In this document: positions 4,293 through 21,471 of the stretch, one piece after another | Position numbering within the stretch: position 1 is the stretch's first letter | Layout of the letters: each line of letters opens with the position of its first letter | Source of the DNA: a virus | Length of the DNA stretch: 21,471 bases | UHGV virus genome: UHGV-0123286 | Reading direction: 5' to 3' (one strand) | Made by a program: the position numbers and the translations under genes | Notes under the pieces: model-generated | What the model saw: only the letters and a program-made list of their open reading frames with translations | Database searches by the model: none | Told to the model about the DNA's origin: nothing

Positions 4293-4432
4293 ACGTCCTC
4301 CTTTTCCTGCGGTAGTGGTAACACCCCTGTTGGTGTTCTTTCACACCGGAGACACCATCGACTCCAGCAAGGTTGATTTGGTCGGAAGCGGTTATCTTCT
4401 TTGCATTCACCGCACCGATAACATCGCATCAT
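4259..4432 (-). CDS. ninD: NinD, 57 aa zinc-ribbon protein
   Basis: Manual translation [34 protein letters not shown]...; ATG overlaps ninC stop (ATGA); 57 aa equals lambda orf57. Confidence 0.7.
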
Positions 4433-5301
4433 GCAGCTTCCCTCCCGAAGTCGAAATCAAGCTGCCCTCCAAATATTTCGCATGACTCAGAACAAGAGCC
4501 GGTATCGAATCTTTTAGCTCGTACCATGTCCTGATACAGGGCTTGATAATCATTTTCTGAATACATTTTCGCGATACCGTCCAGCGACATTCTTCCTCGG
4601 TACATAATCTCCTTTGGCGTTTCCCGATGTCCGTCACGCACATGGGATCCCGTGATGACCTCATTAAAAACACGCTGCAATCCCTCCTCATCTTTGCAGG
4701 CAAGTCCGATTTTTTGCGTTGATTTTTTAATGCAGAATATGCAGTTACCGAGATGTTCCGGTATTTGCAAATCGAATGGTTGTTGCTTCCACCATGCGAG
4801 GATATCTTCCTTCTCAAAGTCTGACAGTTCAGCAAGATATCTGATTCCAGGATTTGGCTTTAGCCGCTTCGGTTCATCAGCTCTGATGCCAATCCACGTG
4901 GTGTAATTCCCTCGCCCGAAATGGTCATCACAGTATTTGGTGAAGGGAACGAGTTTTAATCTGTCAGTGCAGAACGCGCCGCCGACGTATGGAGTGCCAT
5001 ATTTCTTTACCATATCGATAAATGGCTTCAGAACAGGCATTTTCGTCTGAATATCCTTTGGTTCCCATACCTTATAACCATTTGACTGTCCAAGCTCTGG
5101 GTTGATATCAACCTGCAATACAGTGAGCGGTATATCCCAGAACTTCACAACTTCGCGGATAAACCGATATGTCATCGGGTGTTCACAACCTGTATCCATG
5201 AAAACGTAATGCACGTCTTCACCTGCCTGTCGCTTTTGCTCCATTAGCCAGAGCAAATATGCTGACGTCCTGCCACCGGAGAAACTAACGACATTTATCA
5301 T
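4429..5301 (-). CDS. ninC: NinC (PAPS-reductase-like fold), 290 aa; start at internal Met of listed ORF
   Basis: From [24 protein letters not shown]... matches lambda orf290; SGGxxS P-loop-like motif. Confidence 0.85.
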
Positions 5302-5738
5302 GCAGCCCTGTCTCCCCATCTCGCTTTCCACTCCAGAGCCAGTCGCGCTTCGTCTGACCACTTAACGCCACGCTCTGTACCGAATGCCTGTATAAGCTCT
5401 AATAACTCCGCAAATTCGCTTACACGCATCCTGCTGGTTGACTGGCCTATTACCACAAAGCCATTCCCGGCAAGGTTAGGAACAACGTCCTGCTGCTTTA
5501 ATGCTGCGGTAAACACACACTTCCAGCTTTCTGCATCCAGCCAGCGACCATGCCATTCGACCTGACGCGAGACGTCACCAAGGCAAGCCCAAAGTTTCCG
5601 ATTTTGGTCTAAGCTGCGGTTGCGTTCCTGAATGGTTACTACGATTGGTTTGGTTGGGTCTGGAAGGATTTGCTGTACTGCGTGAATAGCGTTTTGCTGA
5701 TGTGCTGGAGATCGAATTTCAAAGGTTAGCTTTTTCAT
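5298..5738 (-). CDS. ninB: NinB recombination mediator (Orf), 146 aa; start at internal Met
   Basis: From MKKLTFEIRSPAHQQNAIHAVQQILPDPTKPIVVTIQERNRSLDQNRK... matches lambda orf146; GGGAGAGGGAAG RBS. Confidence 0.85.
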   Translation of the reverse strand: MKKLTFEIRSPAHQQNAIHAVQQILPDPTKPIVVTIQERNRSLDQNRKLWACLGDVSRQVEWHGRWLDAESWKCVFTAALKQQDVVPNLAGNGFVVIGQSTSRMRVSEFAELLELIQAFGTERGVKWSDEARLALEWKARWGDRAA

Positions 5739-8876: not shown

Positions 8877-9593
8877 ATGGAAAATAAAAAATCACTGACG
8901 ACAGAACAGCTCGAAGACGCTAAGCGGCTTAAGGCTTTGTATGAGTCAAAAAAGAAAGAATTGGGAATAACCCAATACTCAATCGCTGATGAACTGGGTA
9001 TCACCCAAGGAGCGGTAGGGCATTATCTTAATGGCAGAAACGCGCTAAACGTTGAGGTTGCATCTGGTTTTGCACGATTGTTGCAAGTCTCAATTGCTGA
9101 TTTTAGCCAGTCAATTGCTGCCAAGGTTGCAGAACAGGCAGAAAGCCTTAAGAGCGATGCCAACGTAAGGTATGCAGGGGAATACAGAGCAGGAAAGAGG
9201 TATCCGGTGTTAAGCAGTATCCAGGCTGGCTCGTGGTGTGAAGCATGCGAACCATACACCATTAAAGACATAGATGTTTGGCTTGAGTCTGACGCGCATA
9301 TTCAAGGTAATGCGTTCTGGCTTAAAGTGGAAGGTGATTCAATGACGGCACCGGTTGGGTTAAGCATTCCAGAGGGAACATTCGTTCTTTTCGATACCGG
9401 AAGGGAGGCGATCAACGGCAGCTTGGTCATAGCAAAACTTTCTGACTCTAACGAAGCAACATTCAAGAAGCTGATAATCGACGGCGGAAATAAATACCTC
9501 AAGGGACTTAACCCTGCATGGCCTCTCGTGCCAATCAATGGAAACTGCAAGATTATAGGCGTTGCAATTGAGACAAAACTAAGGCTGGTTTGA
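8877..9593 (+). CDS. cI: CI repressor (HTH N-domain plus S24 LexA-like autocleavage domain), 238 aa
   Basis: Overall alignment to lambda CI (LTQEQLEDARRLKAIYE.., C-terminal FWLEVEGNSMTAP.., FKKLI motifs) with divergent recognition helix. Confidence 0.9.
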   Translation: MENKKSLTTEQLEDAKRLKALYESKKKELGITQYSIADELGITQGAVGHYLNGRNALNVEVASGFARLLQVSIADFSQSIAAKVAEQAESLKSDANVRYAGEYRAGKRYPVLSSIQAGSWCEACEPYTIKDIDVWLESDAHIQGNAFWLKVEGDSMTAPVGLSIPEGTFVLFDTGREAINGSLVIAKLSDSNEATFKKLIIDGGNKYLKGLNPAWPLVPINGNCKIIGVAIETKLRLV

Positions 9594-9610
9594 TCACGCA
9601 AGGGGCGCTT

Positions 9611-9979
9611 ATGGTTGGAACCGCTATAGCAAGCTTTTTTGGGATGTTGGCAATCTCGACAATTTACGGCTTAGCGCATGCTTTTATTGCGAAATCTCTA
9701 TCAGAAAAAATAAGCCAGGCTTGGGCGCATAGATTGGCTCGTTTCATGGTTCTAGTGATCATAGCAATACAAGGGATATCTGCATTTATCCTCTATGGAT
9801 CAAGCTTATACCTATTGTATCAAGGCGCGACATTTACGCCTTACACCAGTGATTACGGAACTCTATACGATGGTAGTGAAGACATCTCAATGGCTTGGAT
9901 CGTCTTTGGTTTATCTATGGCCGTGTCTGTTGTAGCAGACATCATTAAGGTAATTCTCGTCTTAACCTTCGCTGACTAA
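9611..9979 (+). CDS. Small integral membrane protein (3 predicted TM helices), 122 aa, immediately downstream of cI
   Basis: Three hydrophobic stretches (VGTAIASFFGMLAISTIYGLAHAFI; LARFMVLVIIAIQGISAFILYG; MAWIVFGLSMAVSVVADIIKVILVL); same strand as cI, 17 nt after its stop. Confidence 0.5.
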   Translation: MVGTAIASFFGMLAISTIYGLAHAFIAKSLSEKISQAWAHRLARFMVLVIIAIQGISAFILYGSSLYLLYQGATFTPYTSDYGTLYDGSEDISMAWIVFGLSMAVSVVADIIKVILVLTFAD

Positions 9980-10111
9980 CTCATAATCCCGGCAGCAATA
10001 GCTATCGGGATCCACTTCACATATCCCGCATAAAAAGCACTGAACAAGCAGACACCGAAAAAATAAATATCCTTTGTATTCATTTGCTTATCATTATTTC
10101 ACCAAAAATAA

Positions 10112-10152
10112 ATACCTTGGGTATTTACACAATAAAATACCTACAGTATTCT
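10112..10152 (+). promoter_or_regulatory. OL operators (10112..10124 ATACCTTGGGTAT; 10137..10149 ATACCTACAGTAT) with pL (-35 TTTACA 10124..10129, -10 TATTCT 10147..10152)
   Basis: Same 13-bp palindrome family and 25-bp spacing as OR; hexamers 17 bp apart, oriented toward N. Confidence 0.55.
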
Positions 10153-10198
10153 TTAGCCATCAGCAGGACGCTGGAAGCCAAACGGAACAGATTGGCAG

Positions 10199-10239
10199 GC
10201 TCTTTAACATTGATGGGATTGTCCCGCCGAAATGCGGGA
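10199..10239 (+). promoter_or_regulatory. nutL: boxA GCTCTTTAACA (10199..10209) and boxB hairpin TCCCGCCGAAATGCGGGA (10222..10239)
   Basis: boxA consensus followed 12 nt later by an inverted repeat identical to nutR boxB, between pL and N. Confidence 0.65.
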
Positions 10240-10346
10240 ACCAAAGAGTAGTTGGCTTTGGGGTGACGTGAAGTGCAGCTGCACGACGGCAACCGGAAGA
10301 TAAGCACCCGGCGCGTCACCGCCAAAGTCAATCATCGGAGGTCAAC

Positions 10347-10652
10347 ATGACAGTAGTCATTACATACCTGGCTGACGATAACGCCAGAAACCGCCGCAGA
10401 GCACGCAGACAGGCTCAACGTGAACAGGCAATGCAAGAGCAGCGACTGGCGCGAAAAATTGCGCTAAAGCTCTCTGGTTGCGTCAGAGCAGACAAAGCAG
10501 CATCACTCGGAAGCCTTCGCTGCAAGAAGGTAGAAGAAGTCGAGAGTAAACAGAATCGTATTTACTACCGCAAGCCACGCAGTGAAATGGGTGTGACTTG
10601 TGTTGGTCGCCAGAAAATGAAATTAGGCAGCAAACCACTGTATGAGGGGTGA
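10347..10652 (+). CDS. N: N antiterminator, 101 aa
   Basis: Arginine-rich motif NARNRRRARRQAQ near N-terminus; C-terminus RIYYRKPRSEMGVTCVGRQKMK resembles lambda N C-terminus; GGAGG RBS. Confidence 0.85.
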   Translation: MTVVITYLADDNARNRRRARRQAQREQAMQEQRLARKIALKLSGCVRADKAASLGSLRCKKVEEVESKQNRIYYRKPRSEMGVTCVGRQKMKLGSKPLYEG

Positions 10653-10655
10653 TCT

Positions 10656-10907
10656 ATGGAATTTCATGAAAGTGCGATTTATGATTTTCGCGCTAACGCA
10701 AATTCAGTAAAACCACAGCCAATTGCAGTACTTTTTAAAACAATGGGTGCGTGGGCTGTTTTATGCTTCGCCGCTGATGACACTGACGCAAGAATGGCAA
10801 TAGGCCAAGAGATGGAGATGGACCCGACAAACGATGAATTCATAATTTATGGCGCTCCATCTAATTACTTACTTGATACCTGCAACATTTACAACAAGGC
10901 TGCCTGA
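10656..10907 (+). CDS. Hypothetical protein, 83 aa (position of lambda ral)
   Basis: ORF with GAGGGG RBS directly after N; no family recognised. Confidence 0.45.
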   Translation: MEFHESAIYDFRANANSVKPQPIAVLFKTMGAWAVLCFAADDTDARMAIGQEMEMDPTNDEFIIYGAPSNYLLDTCNIYNKAA

Positions 10908-10934
10908 TGGTGGCCTTTATTTTTAAGGTGCTAT

Positions 10935-11177
10935 ATGAAAATTAAAACCATGGGCGCAAGCCCATTAAGCGGTCGTATTTTTCAAGGAACATTAAACACT
11001 GAAAAAGGAATGTGGGTAGGAAAGAAAGAAGATGTCACCGAACAGGCAGTTAAGGCAGTAGCTGAACACCTGATGATAAAAAACCAGAAATACGCATACG
11101 AAACGAAGGATGGCAAATGGCTGATAATAAGCCATCAAGTGGTTGATAAATTACCAGAAGATTTTATTGCTGATTAA
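10935..11177 (+). CDS. Hypothetical protein, 80 aa
   Basis: ORF with AAGGTG RBS; no family recognised. Confidence 0.45.
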   Translation: MKIKTMGASPLSGRIFQGTLNTEKGMWVGKKEDVTEQAVKAVAEHLMIKNQKYAYETKDGKWLIISHQVVDKLPEDFIAD

Positions 11178-11305
11178 ATTCACTTTGGAACAAACAACAG
11201 AATAAACACTGCACTGTGTATTCATTCCAACGAGTGAATACACGGAGCAATGTCGCTCGTAACTAAACAGGAGCCGACTTGTTCTGATTATTGGAAATCT
11301 TCTTT

Positions 11306-11332
11306 GCCCTCCAGTGTGAGGGCGATTTTTTT
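11306..11332 (+). terminator. Intrinsic terminator inside the pL operon (tL-like)
   Basis: GCCCTC-CAGTGT-GAGGGC hairpin followed by GATTTTTTT. Confidence 0.5.
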
Positions 11333-11343
11333 GACGGAGGAAA

Positions 11344-11656
11344 TATGAAATTACGTGTCTGGCATATCCCGCAAGTACCTATGAAACCGTTCATTGTAGA
11401 AGTGGCAAGTGTTGAAGAGGGTGTTCGCCTGATGGATGCACTGGCTGATTATGACGCCTTTCAGTATGACAACAACATCAAGCCTGACTACTGCAATGCT
11501 AACGGCCTTGAGATGTGGGATGAGAGCCTTACCGATGAAGATTTATCAGAGATGGGGCTTACTGATCGCTGGGTGGATTGGTACAGCGAATGCCAATGTT
11601 ACGACGACCCACGTAAATATCTCGAAAGCCTGAAAGAAGAAACATCAGCCGCCTAA
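11344..11656 (+). CDS. Hypothetical acidic protein, 103 aa (start at internal ATG with GGAGGA RBS)
   Basis: ATG 11344 preceded by GACGGAGGAAAT; translation MKLRVWHIPQVPMKPFIVEV...; no family recognised. Confidence 0.5.
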
Positions 11657-11731
11657 GCGCGGCTTTACCGCATACCAATAACGCTTCACTCGAGGCGTTT
11701 TCGTTATGCAATCAAATATAAGGAGTTACCC

Positions 11732-11866
11732 ATGATGCACTTTCAGCTCGCGGGTAGCGGCGTCATGTCCGCTTTCTACCCGCACGAATCTGAATTATCA
11801 CGCCGAGTTAAACAATTAATCAGAGCAGCAAAGAAACAACTGGAGGCGTTATGCGCAATGAAATAG
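11732..11866 (+). CDS. cIII: CIII-like protein (FtsH inhibitor), 44 aa
   Basis: Manual translation MMHFQLAGSGVMSAFYPHESELSRRVKQLIRAAKKQLEALCAMK; resembles lambda CIII central region; AGGAG RBS; below ORF-track threshold. Confidence 0.55.
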   Translation: MMHFQLAGSGVMSAFYPHESELSRRVKQLIRAAKKQLEALCAMK

Positions 11867-12003
11867 CCATTAATCACCAGATGCTTCGTGCTGCACAAAA
11901 CAAAGCAGTAATAGCCAGATTTATTGGTGATTCCAAAATGTGGCTTGAAGCAAATAAAGCGATGAAATCAGCTATCAACCTTCCGTGGTATCGCAGGAAA
12001 TGA
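11851..12003 (+). CDS. kil: Kil-like protein, 50 aa
   Basis: Manual translation MRNEIAINHQMLRAAQNKAVIARFIGDSKMWLEANKAMK...; IARFIGDSKMW resembles remembered lambda Kil IATFIGDEKMF; GGAGG RBS; overlaps cIII stop. Confidence 0.45.
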   Translation: MRNEIAINHQMLRAAQNKAVIARFIGDSKMWLEANKAMKSAINLPWYRRK

Positions 12004-12170
12004 GTTTTACAGATAACTGGTCAGACGAAGAATTCATTCGTCAGATGAAAGATTTAATCGGTAACGAAGGAGATATTCATGTCACTTGCAACCACAGTGA
12101 AGGAGAGCAAGTTACAGAGACGCATGTACACGCAGCAGGCGTTAATGTATCGCCAGAAGGGAGATCGTGA
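12000..12170 (+). CDS. Small ORF, 56 aa, translationally coupled to kil (ATGA); overlaps an alternative-frame ORF
   Basis: Start overlaps kil stop; no homolog recognised. Confidence 0.3.
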   Translation: MSFTDNWSDEEFIRQMKDLIGNEGDIHVTCNHSEGEQVTETHVHAAGVNVSPEGRS

Positions 12171-12249
12171 AGGTGTTCGCGTATTTTTAAATGCGGCAAA
12201 GACTGAAGTATTAAATCAGCGTTATTTCCTTGGGCCGTGTCCATTCTGA
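12079..12249 (+). CDS. Small ORF, 56 aa, with strong RBS (AAGGAG, 7-nt spacer); overlaps previous ORF in another frame
   Basis: MSLATTVKESKLQRRMYTQQALMYRQKGDREGVRVFLNAAK...; at most one of the two overlapping ORFs is likely real. Confidence 0.3.
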   Translation: MSLATTVKESKLQRRMYTQQALMYRQKGDREGVRVFLNAAKTEVLNQRYFLGPCPF

Positions 12250-12259
12250 GAACAATCAT

Positions 12260-12865
12260 ATGAGCAAAGAATTTTACGCAAGACTGGCAGCTATTCAGGA
12301 GAATCTGAACGCGCCAAAGAATCAGTACAACTCATTCGGCAAATATAAATACAGAAGCTGCGAAGATATTCTTGAAGGCGTTAAGCCGTTACTGAATGGT
12401 CTGTTTTTATCAATCAGCGATGAAGTTGTGTTGATTGGTGATCGGTATTACGTGAAAGCAACGGCAACTATTACCGATGGCGAAAACAGTCATACGGCAA
12501 CCGCACTAGCACGAGAGGAAGAAAGCAAGAAAGGAATGGATTCTGCACAAGTTACGGGAGCTACAAGCTCTTATGCACGCAAGTATTGCCTCAATGGTTT
12601 GTTCGGCATTGATGATGCGAAAGATGCAGATACAGACGAGCATAAACATCAGCAGAACGCAGCAGCAAAGCAATCAAAACCATCACCTACACCTGAACAG
12701 GTTCTAAAAGCATTCACTGACGCAGCATTGCAGAAAAACACCGTGGAAGAGCTTAAACAGGCGTTCGCCAAAGCGTGGAAGATGCTCGAAGGCACACCGG
12801 AGCAGCACAAAGCGCAGGACGTTTACAACATCAGACGAGACGAATTAGAAGGAGCTGCTGCTTAA
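12260..12865 (+). CDS. erf: Erf single-strand annealing recombinase (P22 Erf family), 201 aa
   Basis: From MSKEFYARLAAIQENLNAPKNQYNSFGKYKYRSCEDILEGVKPLL... matches remembered P22 Erf. Confidence 0.85.
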   Translation: MSKEFYARLAAIQENLNAPKNQYNSFGKYKYRSCEDILEGVKPLLNGLFLSISDEVVLIGDRYYVKATATITDGENSHTATALAREEESKKGMDSAQVTGATSSYARKYCLNGLFGIDDAKDADTDEHKHQQNAAAKQSKPSPTPEQVLKAFTDAALQKNTVEELKQAFAKAWKMLEGTPEQHKAQDVYNIRRDELEGAAA

Positions 12866-13248
12866 TGGCACATTCGATTACTGTAAGACTAAACAAGCCC
12901 GCAAGAGAGTTTCAGGCCGGGGAAAATATCGGATTCAACATCCGTGCTGGCGTTCAGTATTACGATCGCCAGACAAAAAAGAAAGAATGGACAAACTACA
13001 GCGCCGTTGTATTTGCCAAGCCGGGAGCGCAAGCGGATTACTACCGTAGTGTTCTTGTTGAAGGTGGCATTGTAGAAATTACCGGAGAAAACATCAGGGT
13101 TGATGTTTATCAGGGGCAAAATGGTCAATCAATCACTCTTGAATTACTGAATGCAAAGATTGGATTTGCAACTTCAGGAAACAGCCAACAGCAGCAAAGT
13201 AGCAATCATCAAAATCATCCTGAATACGACGATTCAATTCCCTTCTAA
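12865..13248 (+). CDS. SSB-like single-stranded DNA-binding protein, 127 aa
   Basis: C-terminal acidic tail ...EYDDSIPF (bacterial SSB ends DDDIPF); OB-fold-like core EWTNYSAVVFAK...VLVEGGIVEITG; ATG overlaps erf stop (TAATG). Confidence 0.65.
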   Translation: MAHSITVRLNKPAREFQAGENIGFNIRAGVQYYDRQTKKKEWTNYSAVVFAKPGAQADYYRSVLVEGGIVEITGENIRVDVYQGQNGQSITLELLNAKIGFATSGNSQQQQSSNHQNHPEYDDSIPF

Positions 13249-13271
13249 AGTAGCAACATAAGGATTCCATT

Positions 13272-13568
13272 ATGCCAGCGCCTCTGTATGGTGCGGACGA
13301 CGCGCGCCGCTGTTCCGGCAATTCCGTATCGGAGGTGCTGGATAAATTCAGGAAAAACTACAACCGGATAATGTCGCTACCGCAGGAAACGAAAGAGGAA
13401 AAGGAATTTCGCCATTGTATATGGCTTGCAGAGAAAGAAGAACGCGAGCGAATTTACCAGACATCAATCCGACCATTCCGCAAAGCCACATATACCCACT
13501 TCCCTGAATATATCGACCCGCGCCTGCGTAATTACCGCTCACGCTATGGCGCTATCAGTAATGACTGA
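13272..13568 (+). CDS. Hypothetical protein, 98 aa; possibly Abc2-like anti-RecBCD protein (by position after erf, unverified)
   Basis: ORF with AAGGA RBS; assignment rests on P22 gene order and an uncertain recollection of Abc2. Confidence 0.4.
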   Translation: MPAPLYGADDARRCSGNSVSEVLDKFRKNYNRIMSLPQETKEEKEFRHCIWLAEKEERERIYQTSIRPFRKATYTHFPEYIDPRLRNYRSRYGAISND

Positions 13569-13578
13569 GGAATTAACA

Positions 13579-13869
13579 ATGAAAACAATGAAGCTAAACA
13601 TCGACCTCGGAAAATACGTTATTACCGGAACCAAACACGATCTGATTCTAAGCGAAAGAGGAATTATCAAAGAAGGTGAGAATGCAGGGAAAGAAACACT
13701 AAGTCGTATCGGTTATTACAGCAAGTTTGAGCATCTGGTTAAAGAGTTATGCAACCGTGAAATCCTGTTATCTCAGGCGCAGACGCTACAGGATATTCAG
13801 CAGCATATCGAGACTTTAGGTGTGTCACTTAGCATGGCTATTGACCAGTTCGTGGAGAGTAAATCATGA
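13579..13869 (+). CDS. Hypothetical protein, 96 aa
   Basis: ATG 13579 with GAGGA RBS 7 nt upstream; [28 protein letters not shown]... Confidence 0.45.
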
Positions 13870-14030
13870 GAGGACTTGCTTACAATCCCGGCATTCTTCA
13901 GGCAGAAATGATTATTCGCCAACGCGTAAAGCCAATGCCATCGAGAGAGGAATTACTTAAGAGAAATTCTTTTCCATCAGTGAATCAAAACAAATATCTG
14001 AATGCAATGTGGCGGAGTGGGAAGAAATGA
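13866..14030 (+). CDS. Small hypothetical protein, 54 aa
   Basis: ATG overlaps upstream stop (ATGA); manual translation [36 protein letters not shown]... Confidence 0.35.
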
Positions 14031-14425
14031 AACAAATGTCACTAATTGAGATGGATGGTTTTCTGAAAGGTAAATGCATCCCACGAGATTTAAAGGTTAA
14101 CGAAACAAACGCTGAATATCTGGTGCGTAAATTTGCTGAAGCGGAGGCCAAGTGCGCGGCGCTGGCAGCGGAGAATGCGGCGCTTAAACAGTCGGAGAAG
14201 GAATTTAATAACTTCTGTCGTCAGGAGCACTACGGTTGGGAGGACAACTTCACGGAAACCCCAGCCACCGATGCTTTCCTGGCTGAAATTGAACGCAAAG
14301 CAATCCGCAAGTTCATTAACAGCATTGAACACATCCTGCGTGACAAGTTGTCACCGTATGACACCGAAGAGATGCTTGAGGCTATGCGTATTTTTCTGGA
14401 AGAACAGGGAGGTGAGCAAAAATGA
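14027..14425 (+). CDS. Hypothetical protein, 132 aa (coiled-coil-like)
   Basis: ATG overlaps upstream stop (ATGA); [55 protein letters not shown]... Confidence 0.45.
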
Positions 14426-14727
14426 CAATCACAAAACAACGGGTAGAAGAAATCATATCCCGCATTGAAATGTATGGACATGGTGCAGGGTATACCGCAG
14501 ACGAGGTTAATGACCTGGCTGTACTGGCGCTGAATTTATCAAATATCGCAAACCTGAAGCGATACGAGCTTGATATGGATGGTTGTGACTCGTGCGGTCA
14601 GGATTGTGGCGCTGACATGACTGAAGATTCTGATGGCGATTATGTCCTGTTTGATGACGTGGTTAAGTTGTTTGAGCTTGATACATTCGAAAGCCCAGCA
14701 AAGGAGGCAACCAGTGAGCGAAATTAA
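14422..14727 (+). CDS. Hypothetical acidic protein, 101 aa
   Basis: ATG overlaps upstream stop (ATGA); acidic Cys-containing C-terminal half DMDGCDSCGQDCGADMTEDSDGDYVLFDD. Confidence 0.45.
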   Translation: MTITKQRVEEIISRIEMYGHGAGYTADEVNDLAVLALNLSNIANLKRYELDMDGCDSCGQDCGADMTEDSDGDYVLFDDVVKLFELDTFESPAKEATSERN

Positions 14728-15496
14728 TTACCAGGCACTGCGTGAGGCGGCGCAACTGGCAACACAGGGTGAATGGGTCGCATTTATTTCGTCTGGTACT
14801 GGTACATATGCGGTGCATACACCTGGTGATAAACGATGTGAAGACGTTATCAAATGGACCGGCTTTGATGGACAGAAAAATGCAGAGAACAACGCTCGTT
14901 ATATCGCAGCTTTCAACCCAGAAGTAGTGCAGGCGTTGCTGGACGAGCTGGAAGGCAAAGACAAACTGATTGCCGAGCTTGGAAAACAATGCGCCGAATG
15001 GGAGCGAAAAGCATTAAGTAACTTTGAAGAGTGTGCTGCGATGGCTGAACGTATCGAAGAGATGCAGACAAAATCTGCACCAGATTCGTTTGGCATCATC
15101 GGTGAAAATATTCGAACACAGGATAATCGAATAACATCAGACCCTATGTTTTGTGTGTATCAAAAGCGCGAAATCGTTGTTGATGCTGATTATGACTATG
15201 ACCGGATTGTCTGGGTTGATGAAGATGGCAATGAAGCCAATAAACGCCAAAGTCGTCGTCTCGAACTACTTCATGAAAACTTTCGGGAGCCACCAGAAAA
15301 ATGGCGGCGCGTTGCTGTGAAAGATATTGATGAATTCGTGACCTGCTGTTTCACCGAGCAGGGTTGTAAAGACTACCTGGCAGCCAATGGTCACAATCTT
15401 CGCTTGCCATTTATATATGTAAAAAGCGGTTTCAGGAACGCTGAATATATCGGCATAAGAAACTGGCTTGCTGGCATTCGCATCAAAGGAGAATGA
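14714..15496 (+). CDS. Hypothetical protein, about 260 aa (GTG start after AAGGAGG); possibly Ead/Ea22-like early-region family
   Basis: Strong RBS AAGGAGG 6 nt before GTG 14714; family assignment from memory only. Confidence 0.45.
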   Translation: MSEINYQALREAAQLATQGEWVAFISSGTGTYAVHTPGDKRCEDVIKWTGFDGQKNAENNARYIAAFNPEVVQALLDELEGKDKLIAELGKQCAEWERKALSNFEECAAMAERIEEMQTKSAPDSFGIIGENIRTQDNRITSDPMFCVYQKREIVVDADYDYDRIVWVDEDGNEANKRQSRRLELLHENFREPPEKWRRVAVKDIDEFVTCCFTEQGCKDYLAANGHNLRLPFIYVKSGFRNAEYIGIRNWLAGIRIKGE

Positions 15497-15497
15497 G

Positions 15498-16013
15498 ATG
15501 GCGTTAACACACCGCGAACTCTGTCAGATTGCCTACAGGTTCCTTAAGCGCAACGGGTTCAAGGTTTGCTTTCATGACCGCTTTGTTGCTGTAACCAGTA
15601 CTGGAGAACAACCAGATGCTATGGGATTCAGAAATTCAGCATCATGCCTGATAGAGGCGAAGTGTTCTCGTGCTGACTTGTTGGCAGATAGAAAAAAGCG
15701 TTTCCGTAAAAATCCCTCTCTTGGCATGGGGGACTGGCGATTCTTTATTAGTGAGCCGGGAATTATTTCAATTGAGGATTTACCACCTGGCTGGGGATTA
15801 CTTCACGTTGTTAACGGAAGAGTACGGAAAGTACATGGGTGGCCAAAGGGCAATTGCTGTTGGGGTAATCCTGACGATAAGCCATTTACTGGAAATAAGC
15901 AGGTTGAATGCGATTACATGTTATCGGCATTAAGGCGCATGGAGTTGAGAGGGCACCTTAATGAAATATATGACGGTGTAATTGTTAATAAGAAAGAAGG
16001 AAACGCGGCATGA
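15498..16013 (+). CDS. Putative PD-(D/E)xK-fold nuclease-like protein, 171 aa
   Basis: Motif ...GEQPDAMGFRNSASCLIEAKCS... (PD ... ExK spacing typical of restriction-endonuclease-like fold); AAGGAGAA RBS. Confidence 0.45.
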   Translation: MALTHRELCQIAYRFLKRNGFKVCFHDRFVAVTSTGEQPDAMGFRNSASCLIEAKCSRADLLADRKKRFRKNPSLGMGDWRFFISEPGIISIEDLPPGWGLLHVVNGRVRKVHGWPKGNCCWGNPDDKPFTGNKQVECDYMLSALRRMELRGHLNEIYDGVIVNKKEGNAA

Positions 16014-16690
16014 TCACTATTACCAAAGAGCGACTACTGACAATCAAGCAGTGGCGCGAAACATACGGACCTGGTAGCAACGTTGTGCTTCCAGCAGAAG
16101 AAGCGGAAGAGCTGGCACGGATTGCACTGGCATCACTGGCAGTAGTATCGGATGAACGAGCAGCCTATGAATTATTTATGGAGAAGCGTTTCGGGGAATC
16201 TGTAGATCGCCGTAGGGCAAAAAATGGCGATAGAGAATACATGGCATGGGATATGGCGCTTGGCTGGATTATCTGGTGTCACCGCGCCGCCATGCTTCAG
16301 GGTAGCCAACCTGTAAGCCAAACTTACAAGTTGCCAGTTAATACACCTTGCCAAGATGCGCCAGCCCATATCTGGCTACAAACGGCTGGAGTATGGCCAG
16401 AAGATGGCGAGTTAAGCGAATTAACGTGGTGCAGCCACAATCAGCACCATGATGACACGCTATATGTTCGAGCTGACCTTGTGAATGGCAACTATCCGGT
16501 AACTCCGGATAGTTGGATAAGCTGTAGTGAGCGAATGCCGAACGACGCGCAGTGGTGCGTAGTGAACACAGAATACGGGTATTACGCGCAATGCTGGTCT
16601 GAAGGTCAAGGGTGGCTTGGTGATGATATCAGCATCCCTGAATGCGATGTAATCAATTGGATGCCACTACCAGAACCGCCGCAGGGGTGA
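16010..16690 (+). CDS. Hypothetical protein with DUF551-like C-terminal domain, 226 aa
   Basis: ATG overlaps upstream stop (ATGA); C-terminus WISCSERMPNDAQWCVVNTEYGYYAQCWSEGQGWLGDD...WMPLPEPP resembles DUF551 of lambdoid early regions. Confidence 0.5.
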   Translation: MITITKERLLTIKQWRETYGPGSNVVLPAEEAEELARIALASLAVVSDERAAYELFMEKRFGESVDRRRAKNGDREYMAWDMALGWIIWCHRAAMLQGSQPVSQTYKLPVNTPCQDAPAHIWLQTAGVWPEDGELSELTWCSHNQHHDDTLYVRADLVNGNYPVTPDSWISCSERMPNDAQWCVVNTEYGYYAQCWSEGQGWLGDDISIPECDVINWMPLPEPPQG

Positions 16691-16756
16691 AATGATGCTT
16701 GGCCTGAAGTATTTTATGTAATTGGTATTGCTATATTTTTATCTGGGGATAAACGA

Positions 16757-16999
16757 ATGTTCTCTCTGATTCAACGTGGTCAGATATACACCGATAGCGC
16801 TGGCTATCCAGTAAAAATCATTCGTAGTACTGATCACTCAGTATTCTTCAAGAGGATGGATGGCTATCCTGGAAGAGTGTGCATCAGAAAATTCAATAAT
16901 TTATTCGAACACATTGATCACAGAGAATATCACCAGATCCTGGCTGAAACAGAACAGGAGAACCATCTGAAAAAATTACGTGCTATGCAAAGGAGATAA
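16757..16999 (+). CDS. Hypothetical protein, 80 aa
   Basis: ORF with GGGGATAAACGA upstream; no family recognised with confidence. Confidence 0.4.
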   Translation: MFSLIQRGQIYTDSAGYPVKIIRSTDHSVFFKRMDGYPGRVCIRKFNNLFEHIDHREYHQILAETEQENHLKKLRAMQRR

Positions 17000-17079
17000 A
17001 CCGGTAAAGGTGTTCGCGATAAAGGTGAATATCGGCAATGAATAACAATCCTCGAACTCGCGGGGATTTCTTTTATCTG

Positions 17080-17105
17080 AACTCGCTACGGCGAGTTTTG
17101 TTTTA
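17080..17105 (+). terminator. Intrinsic terminator
   Basis: AACTCGC-TACG-GCGAGTT hairpin followed by TTGTTTT. Confidence 0.5.
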
Positions 17106-17117
17106 TGGAGATGATAA

Positions 17118-17285
17118 ATGCACTTCCGAGTCACAGGTGAATGGAATGGAGAGCCATTCGACAGGGTTATCGAAGCAGAGGACATCAACGACTGCTATAA
17201 CCACTGGATGATATGGGCGCAGATAGCGCATGCAGACGTAACCAATATTCGAATTGAAGAACTGAAAGAACACCAAGCCGCCTGA
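17118..17285 (+). CDS. Small hypothetical protein, 55 aa, flanked by two terminators
   Basis: ATG with GGAG 8 nt upstream; MHFRVTGEWNGEPFDRVIEAEDINDCYNHWMIWAQIAHADVTNIRIEELKEHQAA. Confidence 0.4.
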   Translation: MHFRVTGEWNGEPFDRVIEAEDINDCYNHWMIWAQIAHADVTNIRIEELKEHQAA

Positions 17286-17300
17286 TGGCGGTTTTTTCTT
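17277..17300 (+). terminator. Intrinsic terminator upstream of xis
   Basis: CCGCC-TGAT-GGCGG hairpin followed by TTTTTTCTT; stop codon of the 55-aa ORF lies in the loop. Confidence 0.55.
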
Positions 17301-17324
17301 GCGTGTAATTGCGGAGACTTTGCG

Positions 17325-17543
17325 ATGTACTTAACACTTCAGGAGTGGAACGCACGCCAGCGGCGCCCAAGAAGCCTTGAAACAGTTCGTCGATGGGTAC
17401 GCGAGTGCAGGATATTCCCTCCTCCGGTTAAGGATGGAAGAGAGTATCTGTTCCACGAATCAGCGGTAAAGGTTGACTTAAATCGACCAGTAACAGGTAG
17501 CCTTTTGAAGAGGATCAGAAATGGGAAGAAGGCGAAGTCATGA
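17325..17543 (+). CDS. xis: Excisionase Xis, 72 aa
   Basis: Translation MYLTLQEWNARQRRPRSLETVRRWVRECRIFPPPVKDGREYLFHESAVKVDLNRP... is essentially identical to lambda Xis. Confidence 0.95.
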   Translation: MYLTLQEWNARQRRPRSLETVRRWVRECRIFPPPVKDGREYLFHESAVKVDLNRPVTGSLLKRIRNGKKAKS

Positions 17544-18594
17544 GCGCCGGGATTTACCTCCTAACCTTTATATAAGAAACAATGGATATTACTGCTACAG
17601 GGACCCAAGGACGGGTAAAGAGTTTGGATTAGGCCGAGACAGGAGGATAGCAATCACTGAAGCTATACAGGCCAACATTGAGTTACTCTCAGACAGCGGA
17701 CGCAAATCACTGATAGACAGAATTAAAGGCGGTGACGCAATCACTCTTCATGTGTGGCTTGACCGATATGAAAGAATCCTCACCGAAAGGGGGATCAGGC
17801 CGAAAACTCTACTCGACTACGCCAGCAAAATCAGGGCAATCCGAAGAAAATTGCCGGACAAACCGCTCACTGACATATCAACGAAAGAAGTGGCAGCAAT
17901 GCTAAACACCTACGTAGCAGAAGGTAAAGCAGCTTCCGCAAAATTAATCAGGTCAACCCTTGTTGACGTTTTTCGTGAAGCAATAGCCGAGGGGCATGTG
18001 GCAACGAATCCGGTAACAGCAACCCGTACAGCAAAGTCAGAAGTAAGGCGCTCAAGGCTGACAGCTAATGAGTATGTCGAGATTTACCATGCAGCCGAAC
18101 CTCTCCCTATCTGGCTAAGGCTGGCGATGGATTTGGCCGTCGTTACAGGGCAGAGAGTCGGCGATTTGTGCAGAATGAAATGGTCAGACATAAACGACAA
18201 CCATCTTCACATTGAACAGAGTAAAACAGGGGCTAAACTCGCCATTCCGCTAATGCTAACGATTGACGCGCTCAATATCTCATTGGCTGATACACTACAG
18301 AAATGCAGGGATGCCAGCAGCAGTGAAACTATAATCGCATCAAAGCATCACGATCCGCTTTCCCCGAAAACAGTATCAAAGTATTTTACAAAGGCGAGAA
18401 ATGCATCTGGACTCTCATTTGATGGAAACCCGCCAACATTCCATGAACTGCGTAGCCTGTCAGCGAGGCTATACCGGAACCAGATTGGCGATAAGTTTGC
18501 TCAACGTCTTCTCGGGCATAAATCAGATTCAATGGCGGCGCGGTATAGGGACAGCCGTGGACGGGAATGGGACAAAATTGAAATCGACAAATGA
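17521..18594 (+). CDS. int: Tyrosine integrase (lambda/HK022 Int family), 357 aa
   Basis: Translation MGRRRSHERRDLPPNLYIRNNGYYCYRDPRTGKEFGLGRDRRIAITEAIQANIEL... near-identical to lambda Int N-terminus; catalytic region HELRSLSARLY...HKSD..AARY; start overlaps xis. Confidence 0.95.
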   Translation: MGRRRSHERRDLPPNLYIRNNGYYCYRDPRTGKEFGLGRDRRIAITEAIQANIELLSDSGRKSLIDRIKGGDAITLHVWLDRYERILTERGIRPKTLLDYASKIRAIRRKLPDKPLTDISTKEVAAMLNTYVAEGKAASAKLIRSTLVDVFREAIAEGHVATNPVTATRTAKSEVRRSRLTANEYVEIYHAAEPLPIWLRLAMDLAVVTGQRVGDLCRMKWSDINDNHLHIEQSKTGAKLAIPLMLTIDALNISLADTLQKCRDASSSETIIASKHHDPLSPKTVSKYFTKARNASGLSFDGNPPTFHELRSLSARLYRNQIGDKFAQRLLGHKSDSMAARYRDSRGREWDKIEIDK

Positions 18595-18688
18595 TTTTAT
18601 TTTGACTAATAATGACCTGCTTACATTAATTCATTGATAATAAAAGAGATTTCAAATATACAACTTATTCACCTAAAGTGCACCGACC
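18595..18688. other. attL: P' arm with arm-type Int sites (18596..18620) and candidate core/overlap region (about 18661..18685)
   Basis: Minus-strand reads CAGGTCATTAT-TAGTCAAAAT-AAAATCATT, close to lambda P'1-P'3 arm sites; core candidate GCACTTTAGGTGAATAAG resembles the HK022-type core as I recall it. Confidence 0.6.
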
Positions 18689-21421
18689 GTGAATTTAACC
18701 CTGACCCGAAGACTCTGGATGGGCTTTGCCCTGATGGCGCTGTTAACCCTGACCAGTACCCTGGTGGGATGGTACAACCTGCGCTTTATCAGCCAGGTGG
18801 AAAAAGACAACACTCAGGCATTGATTCCTACCATGAATATGGCGCGCCAGTTGAGCGAAGCCAGCGCCTGGGAACTTTTCGCCGCGCAGAACCTGACCAG
18901 TGCCGATAACGAAAAGATGTGGCAGGCGCAGGGGCGAATGCTCACCGCACAAAGCCTGAAGATTAATGCGTTGCTGCAAGCGTTACGGGAACAAGGTTTT
19001 GACACCACCGCTATTGAACAACAGGAGCAGGAGATCTCCCGTTCGTTACGTCAGCAAGGGGAACTGGTGGGGCAGCGTTTGCAACTTCGCCAGCAACAAC
19101 AGCAACTCAGTCAGCAGATAGTCGCCGCCGCCGATGAAATCGCACGCCTGGCGCAAGGTCAGGCGAATAATGCGGCAACCTCCGCCGGAGCGACCCAGGC
19201 CGGGATTTACGATTTGATCGAACAACATCAGCGTCAAGCCGCAGAAAGTGCACTCGATCGGCTGATTGATATCGATCTTGAGTATGTTAACCAGATGAAT
19301 GAACTGCGCCTTAGCGCCCTGCGGGTGCAGCAAATGGTGATGAATCTGGGGCTGGAACAGATCCAGAAAAATGCGCCAACGCTGGAAAAGCAGCTCAATA
19401 ATGCGGTGAAAATTCTGCAACGTCGGCAAATACGCATTGAAGATCCGGGTGTTCGTACTCAGGTAGCAACAACGTTAACTACCGTTAGCCAATATAGCGA
19501 TTTGCTGGCGCTGTATCAGCAGGACAGTGAAATCAGCAATCACCTGCAAACTCTCGCCCAAAATAACATCGCCCAATTCGCGCAGTTTAGTAGCGAAGTC
19601 AGTCAGCTGGTCGACACCATTGAGCTGCGTAATCAGCACGGGCTGGCACATCTGGAAAAAGCCAGTGCACGCGGGCAATACAGCCTGTTATTGCTGGGAT
19701 TAGTTTCTCTTTGCGCACTGATTCTGATCCTCTGGCGCGTGGTTTATCGCTCAGTCACGCGCCCTCTTGCAGAACAAACGCAGGCGCTGCAACGCTTGCT
19801 GGATGGTGATATCGACTCCCCTTTCCCGGAAACCGCTGGCGTACGGGAACTGGATACCATCGGGCGGCTGATGGATGCGTTTCGCAGCAGTGTTCATGCA
19901 CTGAATCGCCACCGCGAACAGCTGGCGGCGCAGGTCAAAGCGCGTACAGCTGAATTGCAGGAACTGGTGATAGAACACCGACAGGCACGGGCGGAAGCAG
20001 AAAAAGCCAGCCAGGCAAAATCGGCGTTTCTGGCGGCGATGAGCCATGAGATCCGCACACCGCTGTACGGTATTCTCGGCACCGCACAGCTGCTGGCAGA
20101 TAACCCCGCACTTAACGCCCAGCGCGATGATTTGCGGGCGATTACCGACTCTGGTGAATCGTTGCTGACCATCCTCAACGATATTCTCGATTATTCGGCT
20201 ATCGAAGCAGGCGGCAAGAATGTTTCGGTCAGCGATGAACCCTTTGAACCGCGCCCGCTGCTGGAAAGTACCCTGCAATTAATGAACGGAAGGGTGAAAG
20301 GTCGCCCGATTCGCCTGGCAACAGAAATTGCCGACGATGTACCGACTGCGTTAATGGGCGATCCGCGGCGTATTCGTCAGGTCATTACCAACCTGTTGAG
20401 CAACGCCCTGCGTTTCACCGACGAAGGGCACATTATTCTGCGTAGTCGCACTGATGGCGAACAATGGCTGGTCGAAGTGGAAGACAGCGGCTGCGGTATT
20501 GATCCCGCGAAACTGGCTGAAATCTTCCAGCCATTTGTTCAGGTTAGCGGCAAACGCGGCGGCACCGGGCTGGGGCTGACTATCAGTAGCCGTCTGGCCC
20601 AGGCGATGGGCGGCGAATTGAGCGCCACCAGCACGCCGGAGGTTGGAAGCTGTTTTTGTTTACGCGTGCCGTTACGTGTTGCCACTGCACCCGTGCCAAA
20701 AACAGTCAATCAGGCGGTGCGTCTGGACGGTTTACGTTTGCTGTTAATTGAAGATAACCCGCTAACCCAGCGGATTACCGTTGAGATGTTGAACAGCAGT
20801 GGGGCGCAGGTCGTTGCCGTAGGAAATGCCGCGCAGGCTTTAGAGACACTGCAAAATAGTGAACCGTTTGCTGCCGCACTGGTGGATTTTGATCTACCGG
20901 ATATCGACGGCATTACGCTTGCCCGACAACTGGCACAGCAATATCCGTCGCTGGTTTTGATTGGCTTTAGCGCCCATGTCATTGACGAAACACTGCGACA
21001 GCGTACCAGTTCGCTATTTCGCGGGATTATCCCTAAACCGGTGCCGCGTGAAGTGCTCGGTCAATTACTGGCGCACTATCTCCAACTGCAAGTCAATAAC
21101 GATCAACCACTGGATGTATCGCAACTCAATGAAGATGCTCATTTAATGGGGGCGGAGAAGATCCACGAATGGCTGATATTATTTAAACAACATGCCCTGC
21201 CGCTTCTCGATGAAATCGACATTGCCCGCGCCAGTCAGGATAACGAGAAAATAAAGCGTGCCGCACATCAGCTAAAAAGCAGTTGCTCGAGTCTGGGAAT
21301 GCGTAGCGCCAGCCAGCAATGCGCACAACTGGAGCAGCAGCCATTATCTGCCCCCCTTCCACACGAAGAAATTACACGCAGTGTTGCCGCTCTGGAAGCA
21401 TGGTTAATAAGAAAGACCTGA
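18689..21421 (+). CDS. torS: Hybrid sensor histidine kinase TorS (TMAO respiration two-component system), 910 aa
   Basis: Translation [41 protein letters not shown]... with H-box SHEIRTP, receiver domain and C-terminal HPt matches E. coli TorS; GTG start. Confidence 0.95.
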
Positions 21422-21471
21422 ACGCGATTTGAATCAATATCAGCCAGTTAAGAACAACTAGAATAGTGGCA

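Follow-up and report, generated by a model that had tools for sequence, protein, structure and literature searches.

The window analyzed in this study, the virus genome UHGV-0123286 (21,471 nucleotides, nt), which judging from its sequence is a lambdoid (lambda-like) Escherichia coli prophage integrated beside torS, contains a block of six consecutive plus-strand genes, hereafter designated g1 (13866–14030; 54 amino acids, aa), g2 (14027–14425; 132 aa), g3 (14422–14727; 101 aa), g4 (14714–15496; GTG start, 260 aa), g5 (15498–16013; 171 aa), and g6 (16010–16690; 226 aa). An earlier reading of this DNA (hereafter, the original prediction) had described them as a translationally coupled accessory block, and its gene sizes and coordinates proved exact, as did the positions of the junctions: ATGA overlaps at 13866, 14027, 14422, and 16010, a 14-nt overlap at 14714, and a 1-nt gap at 15497. 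However, the ATGA at 13866 ties g1 to an upstream DUF5405 gene (13579–13869, plus strand, 96 aa; PF17399, E 2e-5; phrog_154; gap to g1 of −4), so that the tight run comprises seven genes and the left edge of the block is arbitrary; the DUF5405 gene is replaced or absent in related prophages (L471). The block lies between an Erf/SSB/Abc2 recombination module and xis-int, all on the plus strand together with the genes for an N-like antiterminator and Kil, and this gene order confirms the location that had been proposed, namely the site of variable cargo that, in the early-left operon, separates the recombination module from xis.

All six products match phage protein families in PHROG with E values of 1e-36 to 1e-122, and the six open reading frames (ORFs) are thus genes; the reading as chance ORFs was rejected on these matches. 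A Shine-Dalgarno sequence precedes each of the six starts, with duplex energies against the anti-Shine-Dalgarno sequence of −5.7 to −12.4 kcal/mol, whereas the longer starts of g4 (ATG at 14633) and g5 (TTG at 15468) lack one (−1.0 and −1.7) and were rejected. From the tight coupling the original prediction had deduced stoichiometric co-expression of a functional unit. Such junctions are, however, usual throughout the window, so that six in a row are nothing unusual: approximately 20 of the 33 same-strand junctions have a gap of at most 3 nt, as do 14 of the 27 that lie outside the block, where the tight junctions include those of Q, the metallophosphatase, NinG, NinF, O/DnaB, erf/ssb, and cI/orf129. 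The nin region in particular resembles the block in that non-essential, functionally unrelated genes are packed with ATGA-type overlaps (in the window, −4 for Q/metallophosphatase, −4 for metallophosphatase/NinG, and −8 for NinG/NinF), although it belongs to the early-right operon and consists of other gene families.

Whether the six genes travel together was examined by megablast, with the block as query, in 5426 complete E. coli genomes and, in a second search, in 50,697 phage records. Pieces of the block were present in 2969 of the genomes, none of which contained 80% or more of it (maximum, 58%), and in 528 of the phage records, again with no record reaching 80% (0/528); this combination of cassettes was found in none of the complete RefSeq E. 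coli genomes. IMG/VR searches anchored on each gene in turn gave 464 viral loci, which were scored for the six proteins and their sub-domains. At most three of the six genes were present in any of these loci at 80% identity, and at most four at 40%, and each gene was found at 88–99% identity beside differing neighbours. Thus, among 50 well-flanked loci carrying g5 at 98% identity, full-length g4 and full-length g2 were both absent and g3 occurred once, and the C-terminal domain (CTD) of g4 was likewise present in a single one of 50 g5-anchored loci. Where linkage is strong, it extends from a gene no further than a few dozen codons into the following gene: g1 is accompanied by the first ~40 codons of g2 (its leader) in 46 of 47 loci and by full g2 in none (0/47), and g5 by the leader of g6 in 36 of 50 loci and by full g6 in none (0/50). 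At the family level, Ead and DUF551 genes were about equally common whichever gene served as the anchor, Ead being found in 27 of 50 loci with g5 (a lower bound, since family-level tblastn under-detects divergent Ead N-termini) versus 24 of 47 without it.

Different cargo may even occupy the slot at the same attachment site. Two sampled prophages with the same xis-int-torS junction, which is common to 190 complete E. coli genomes, carry other gene sets that are again joined by 4-nt overlaps, namely DUF2737, a 211-aa protein, a truncated Ead gene, and DUF551 in one, and DUF2737, DUF7446, an Ead gene, and ASCH in the other. The alternative cargo in this slot includes HNH endonuclease, YfdS, dATP/dGTP pyrophosphohydrolase, ASCH, and DUF550 proteins. 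The original prediction had itself proposed a co-occurrence analysis, and had named independent occurrence of the homologs without conserved linkage as the result against it; no conserved linkage was found in genomes, phage records, or anchored loci, so that the inference of a functional unit fails by its own terms. Collectively, its view of the location and of the protein types was right, apart from one 'Cys-rich' protein discussed below, and its view of the six genes as a functional unit was wrong.

Comparison of the window with the viral loci at the DNA level directly revealed a mosaic structure of the block. Homology starts cluster at 13860, 14244, 14688, 14964, 15468–15479, 16008, 16272, and 16476, and homology ends cluster at 13572, 14136–14148, 14748–14760, 15492, 16140–16151, and 16536–16547. 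These breakpoints lie either just 5′ of a Shine-Dalgarno sequence or 12–45 codons into the next gene. Since breakpoints fall within g2 (14136–14148 and 14244), g4 (14748–14760 and 14964), and g6 (16140–16151, 16272, 16476, and 16536–16547), these three genes are themselves chimeras, and joints 12–45 codons inside genes account for ea-region proteins being alike at their N-termini and unlike in their C-terminal domains. Moreover, the geometry of the junctions moves with the cassette and persists when the neighbours change: the gap upstream of g5 is +1 in 75 of 78 loci representing 10 upstream clusters, the overlap downstream of g5 is −4 in 73 of 75 loci representing 5 downstream clusters, and that upstream of g3 is −4 in 55 of 63 loci. 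The cluster counts are lower bounds of diversity, because a 76-aa 'upstream neighbour' assigned to g5 in 35 loci by crude ORF calling was rejected after two of them (L002 and L035) were seen to carry an Ead-like gene and a small basic gene instead.

The junction between g4 and g5 illustrates these boundaries. It extends over 15468–15500 (plus strand) and consists of the last ~8 codons of g4, the stop codon, 1 nt, and the ATG of g5, with the Shine-Dalgarno sequence AAGGAG falling within the K-G-E codons of g4. Homology to other loci begins at 15468–15479 in 65 distinct patterns. The sequence gCAtcAAAGGAGAGTGAt before the g5 ATG is at least 90% conserved over 33 distinct upstream sequences, and the conservation is confined to the last ~20 nt, with nothing conserved further upstream. 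The motif AAAGGAGARTGANATG was found in 317 of the 464 loci (0.03 expected by chance), twice in 20 of them, and the genes next to this linker are of at least 12 kinds downstream and at least 10 upstream. It also closes ea22 of lambda (L468; NC_001416, about 29847–29880, minus strand), which shares the AGIRIKGE/linker end with g4 and has neither g5 nor any other gene behind the linker. All Ea22 proteins have been reported to end in K/R-G-E, with unknown significance (Dydecka et al.; PMC7093339). The simplest reading is that these last codons double as part of the Shine-Dalgarno/stop/start linker that leads into the following cassette, and so belong to a shared boundary element; the linker would now account for the previously unexplained '+GE' ending. 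In two loci (L035, 5792–5990; L002, 5800–6000), a small basic gene of ~65 aa (MATNNRKAKI... or MKNRKAKM...) stands between an Ea22-like gene and g5, bordered at either end by the KGE linker in the manner of a cassette set between two copies of its boundary.

Upstream of this junction, g4 belongs to the Ead/Ea22 family (PF13935, 90.6 bits versus a cutoff of 27, residues 2–116), and the Pfam alignment begins at residue 2 of the GTG-initiated protein. A conserved N-terminal and coiled-coil part (1–116) is followed by a swappable CTD (117–260; phrog_3205 matches residues 107–259) that ends in AGIRIKGE. With gp07, the Ea22-like protein of the Shiga toxin (Stx) 2 phage 1717, the CTD shares 97% identity but the N-terminal part only 40%; the AlphaFold2 model of the CTD was poor (predicted local distance difference test, pLDDT, 61), and this domain is unrelated to the solved CTD of lambda Ea22, giving no match in the PDB. 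Such mosaicism, in which unrelated CTDs follow a common N-terminus and coiled coil, has been described for Ea22 genes (PMC10834534), and Ea22 is prolysogenic in lambda and Stx phages (PMC7093339).

The g5 product is a basic protein, for which a confident AlphaFold model (pLDDT 89) predicts the restriction-endonuclease-like α/β core fold. According to this model, the nuclease fold of g5 is of the PD-(D/E)xK type, with MmcB-like/DUF1052 and Hjc/UPF0102 proteins as the nearest families; restriction enzymes, Can2, and Hjc come next among the structural matches, and viral proteins named MmcB-like were among its best matches in BFVD. Residues D40, E53, and K55 (together with D27 and E37) do not vary among 45 homologs of 58% identity or more, leaving the D...(D/E)xK motif intact, and the predicted fold and these residues bear out the motif recognized in the original prediction. 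By sequence, the PDB gave only a marginal match to the MmcB-like (DUF1052) structure 3dnx (25% identity), and no Pfam or NCBIfam model reached its threshold with g5. PF06319 matched neither g5 nor any of the 45 homologs at E ≤ 5, the Hjc model was only sub-threshold in 18 of the 45 family members, and one distant member of the family scored 21.0 bits with PF06319 versus a cutoff of 22. As no PF06319 match exceeded the threshold, g5 is a structural neighbour of the MmcB-like family rather than a member of it. The probable role of g5 is that of a catalytically active PD-(D/E)xK endonuclease with DNA as its substrate. Its family is large (~3210 cluster representatives at 50% identity), unmodelled in Pfam and NCBIfam, and intact in its motif, which makes it amenable to biochemical work in Stx phages. 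The occasional presence of nuclease genes close to int in early-left operons has been described earlier, and these were not counted as genes of the Rec module (PMC12315714). Three Salmonella proteins annotated 'ead/Ea22-like' (P0095, P0096, and P0105) are fusions of the g5 domain with a short N-terminal stretch of Ead/Ea22; in further chimeras, fragments of g5 are joined to DUF551 (P0020) or to dATP/dGTP pyrophosphohydrolase (P0440).

Among the remaining genes, g1 encodes a basic DUF2737 protein (isoelectric point, pI, 11; PF10930, E 6e-30, 103.3 bits versus a cutoff of 25), 74% identical to P22 orf56, and is usually the first gene 3′ of the recombination module. The g2 product (phrog_614) combines an N-terminal leader (1–40) common to several phage families, with phrog_14548 and phrog_583 matching residues 3–52 only, and a middle and C-terminal part related to P22 EaE (60% identity over residues 32–92); its best full-length viral match is 79% identical, and its separate segments reach 92–94%. 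The g6 product is similarly an acidic, Trp-rich mosaic of a 'TITKER' leader (1–44), a variable middle, and a C-terminal DUF551 (168–225; PF04448, E 6.7e-11, 43.3 bits versus a cutoff of 22), the last agreeing with the DUF551-like protein of the original prediction. It is 50% identical at the N-terminus and 33% at the C-terminus to P22 eaA, matches by which it is classed as an EaA-type protein, and its best full-length viral match is 79% identical, with separate segments at 92–95%.

The g3 product, whose sole family match is phrog_3126 (E 1e-61), had been described as acidic and Cys-rich. It is indeed acidic (pI 4.05; 23 acidic versus 8 basic residues); however, it contains only 3 Cys in 101 aa, of which C55 and C62 are invariant in the homologs, and a role as a Cys-rich metal binder was rejected because only two Cys are conserved. 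Its N-terminal region is homologous to residues 2–81 of g6 (30% identity, E 3e-6; 14422–14660 versus 16010–16250). The common leader of g3 and g6 has the form MTITK(Q/E)R...YG.G...AEE..LA..AL, and the same leader (MTTITKER..., MTTFTREQ..., MTTITDKE...) heads several unrelated downstream genes in other loci. Profile searches, which had been proposed as a check, thus identified families for g1, g4, and g6, and found none in Pfam at threshold for g2, g3, and g5. A search of NCBIfam gave nothing for the block, Rfam gave no match to it, PDB sequence searches with g1, g2, g3, g4, and g6 gave no meaningful match, and the PADLOC models, which cover counter-defence only in part, matched none of nine proteins.

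The block is very probably a variable accessory segment of the early-left (pL) operon that consists of exchangeable cassettes and half-cassettes, and not a co-evolving unit. It would be read as part of the N-antiterminated pL transcript, which is supported indirectly by the lack of promoter-like and terminator-like sites inside the block and by the non-essentiality of the corresponding lambda genes. The Shine-Dalgarno sequence of each gene would lie within the final codons of the gene before it, an arrangement that would give rise to the ATGA, 14-nt, and 1-nt junctions. Exchange points are of two kinds: short junction linkers with Shine-Dalgarno, stop, and start, of which AAAGGAGARTGANATG is an example, and the N-terminal leaders, that is, 'SEINYQALRE' of Ead/Ea22, 'TITKER' of g3/g6, and the g2 leader. 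Presumably, linkers and leaders offer homology to Erf-, Red-, and RecT-type recombinases that swap the downstream cargo, and such swaps would also yield chimeric proteins with a common N-terminus and a variable C-terminal domain. Two studies describe relaxed recombination by phage recombinases (PMC3945230 and PMC2327257), consistent with this linker homology. Going by the examples of lambda, Phi24B, and CPS-53, the gene products may be dispensable early proteins that act singly on host or phage physiology, g4 being an Ea22-type oligomeric coiled-coil protein. The lambdoid stop/start overlap is a property of portable junctions and genome compaction rather than the mark of a multi-protein system, and overlap alone should not nominate modules.

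Several observations weigh against the cassette interpretation. Sub-linkages exist (g1 with the g2 leader, 46/47; g5 with the g6 leader, 36/50; the g4 CTD with g5, 16/40), and so do the Salmonella proteins in which an Ead N-terminus is fused to the g5 domain. The whole block recurs, the exact g6 protein being present on at least 24 draft or short-read contigs and listed by the index in 39 blocks of the collection; the loci shown that reach far enough upstream all carry the full gene series, and those reaching the host flank are all at torS. The block is also intact in two sister prophages whose left recombination modules differ, one 100% identical to the window from 14144 onward with a RecT/Gp157 module to the left, and the other 98.8% identical from 13865 onward with a Rad52/SSB module to the left, and selection may keep the six genes together. 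Furthermore, the viral loci are the best 80 per anchor and their counts ignore kinship, and transcription from pL, translational coupling, recombination at linkers, and the functions of all the proteins are inferred steps. As to the recurrence, the left breakpoints of both sister prophages coincide with hot spots of homology breakpoints, and the host flank is also 99–100% identical, which suggests that the int-proximal segment was inherited vertically while the DNA to its left was replaced. The recurrence of the whole block is therefore most simply explained by vertical descent and not by independent co-transfer.

It is, by comparison, highly improbable that the six genes form one dedicated anti-defence or host-takeover module with stoichiometry fixed by coupling. 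Six or seven consecutive overlaps or near-overlaps without an internal promoter-like or terminator-like site, and retention of the complete block in at least two sister prophages with replaced recombination modules, would suit such a module, but the set is carried by no unrelated phage or genome, its genes are found at 88–99% identity beside different neighbours, g2, g4, and g6 are intragenic mosaics, and the overlaps are generic in the window and in other cargo sets, the same gaps recurring with different partners; every gene, moreover, has its own Shine-Dalgarno sequence, and PADLOC gave no match. Smaller functional pairs, mainly the Ea22-like g4 with the nuclease-fold g5, their translation being coupled by the KGE junction, and as a second possibility g1 with g2, are also improbable. 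Many Stx phages contain the g4 CTD, g5, and the g6 leader as a single segment of 96% identity, g5 is present in 16 of 40 loci anchored on the g4 CTD, an Ead/Ea22-type gene precedes g5 in most sampled loci, and the Salmonella fusions unite an Ead N-terminus with the g5 domain. However, the converse linkage is seen in only 1 of 50 g5-anchored loci, g5 also follows non-Ead genes (L023 and L064) and the small basic gene, behind Ea22-type genes the linker leads into at least 12 other genes, lambda has the linker without g5, Ead is equally frequent without g5 (24/47 versus 27/50), and the fusions could be a by-product of leader-mediated recombination. The segment of g4 CTD, g5, and g6 leader was also found at ~95% identity in P1-like phages and phage-plasmids (637 plasmid places), indicating that cassette exchange extends beyond lambdoid phages, and the annotation of phage 1717 notes similarity to 'Upf89.0' of P7.

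Possible, though doubtful, is a cargo hot spot in which single cassettes are anti-defence, defence, or superinfection-exclusion genes, with g3 as an acidic, DNA-mimic-like inhibitor and g5 as a nuclease against competitors or host defence nucleic acids. This alternative overlaps the preferred interpretation and differs from it in the class of function only. The high turnover with many alternative cargoes in the same slot, the known counter-defence neighbours (the anti-RecBCD protein Abc2 here and Ral in a sister prophage), the strong acidity of g3, and the intact catalytic motif of g5 are consistent with it. On the other side, PADLOC gave no match, g1, g2, g3, and g6 have no relative of solved structure, and the phenotypes published for this region in lambda and Phi24B relate to the choice between lysis and lysogeny and to the physiology of the host rather than to defence. 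A bolder extension of the exchangeable-cassette interpretation, which we regard as unlikely, is an array in which the ~16–25-nt linker AAAGGAGARTGANATG and the three leaders would be dedicated recombination linkers through which Erf, Red, or RecT shuffle whole genes and a large stock of C-terminal effector domains among lambdoid, Stx, and P1-like phages, and in which an Ea22-type scaffold and the MmcB/Hjc-like nuclease g5 would be a true functional pair; the Salmonella fusions would then be Rosetta-stone evidence for the Ea22-g5 pairing.

The block, which is largely ordinary, belongs to the well-known ea or exo-xis type of region. In lambda and Stx phages, the exo-xis region (orf60a, orf63, orf61, orf73, ea22, and ea8.5) lies on the pL strand, flanked as here by the recombination genes and xis, and likewise consists of dispensable early genes including an Ead/Ea22 gene with a swappable CTD. 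All lambda pL genes beyond N are non-essential for lytic growth (PMC10695390), and work on the region in lambda and Phi24B has reported effects on lysogenisation, induction, and host physiology (PMC10834534 and PMC7093339). Nevertheless, orf60a, orf63, orf61, orf73, and ea8.5 are all absent from the block, and the recombination module is Erf/SSB/Abc2 in the window versus Exo/Bet/Gam in lambda. Stx2 phage 1717 has Ea22, a g5 homolog (99%), and DUF551 with the same 1-nt gap and ATGA.

The ea region of the Salmonella phage P22 (abc2, orf56, eaE, orf45, eaF, eaD, eaI, eaA, eaG, eaC, and xis) resembles the block in the order after abc2, namely orf56/DUF2737, eaE-like, Ead-family, and EaA, and in the same chain of 4-nt and 13-nt overlaps. 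It differs in lacking counterparts of g5 and of g3, the latter being absent also from lambda and Stx2 phage 1717; conversely, eaF, eaI, eaG, and eaC are absent from the block region, except for an orf55/eaG fragment. The attachment site is thrW in P22 and torS here, and the integrase also differs. In the cryptic prophage CPS-53, the early accessory cluster yfdQ-yfdR-yfdS-yfdT includes the DUF551 protein YfdS, and 'YfdS family' genes occupy the same slot in other E. coli prophages. Several genes of yfdQRST were jointly needed, when over-expressed, to inhibit DnaA-dependent initiation, an effect to which YfdS contributes (PMC4776307). Only the DUF551 domain is common to the two, homologs of YfdQ, YfdR, and YfdT being absent from the block.

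Positions 10010–21471 of the window correspond to locus L469 and are 100% identical to contig AARVHN010000012.1 of assembly GCA_012172655.1. The plus strand carries, in order, cI, the N-like antiterminator (10347), gp17, Kil (11851), Erf, SSB-like, Abc2, DUF5405, g1–g6, DUF4222, orf55, xis, int, and the host torS, the antiterminator and Kil thus lying upstream of the block; the minus strand carries holin, endolysin, Q, NinG, NinF, NinB, DnaB-like helicase, O, and cII. The recombination module (12260–13568, plus strand; phrog_44 and phrog_656) comprises Erf (12260–12865), an SSB-like protein, and the anti-RecBCD protein Abc2 (13272–13568), which is 91% identical to P22 abc2, and the precomputed annotation of the identical locus L469 gives PF04404 ERF and PF11043 in this module. 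The DUF4222 gene, orf55, xis (17325), and int (17521), assigned by Pfam, extend over 16757–18594 (plus strand), followed by torS (18689–21421), assigned by the NCBIfam model TorS.

Over 13248–16999, neither a promoter-like nor a terminator-like site was found on the plus strand. A hairpin of 8 pairs followed by a T-run, strongly terminator-like, occupies 17275–17294 (plus strand), directly 3′ of orf55 and 30 nt 5′ of xis, and two weaker terminator-like hairpins lie at 17047–17098; these hairpins may separate read-through of the ea region from expression of xis-int. A 129-aa ORF at 9590–9979 (plus strand; phrog_6534) has a 4-nt overlap with the stop codon of cI and, as it sits where lambda has rexAB, is a candidate for a gene expressed in the lysogen. 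Finally, a PAPS-reductase-like gene of 310 aa (4429–5361, minus strand), which PHROG labels as a moron or auxiliary metabolic gene, lies within the nin region between NinB and NinF.

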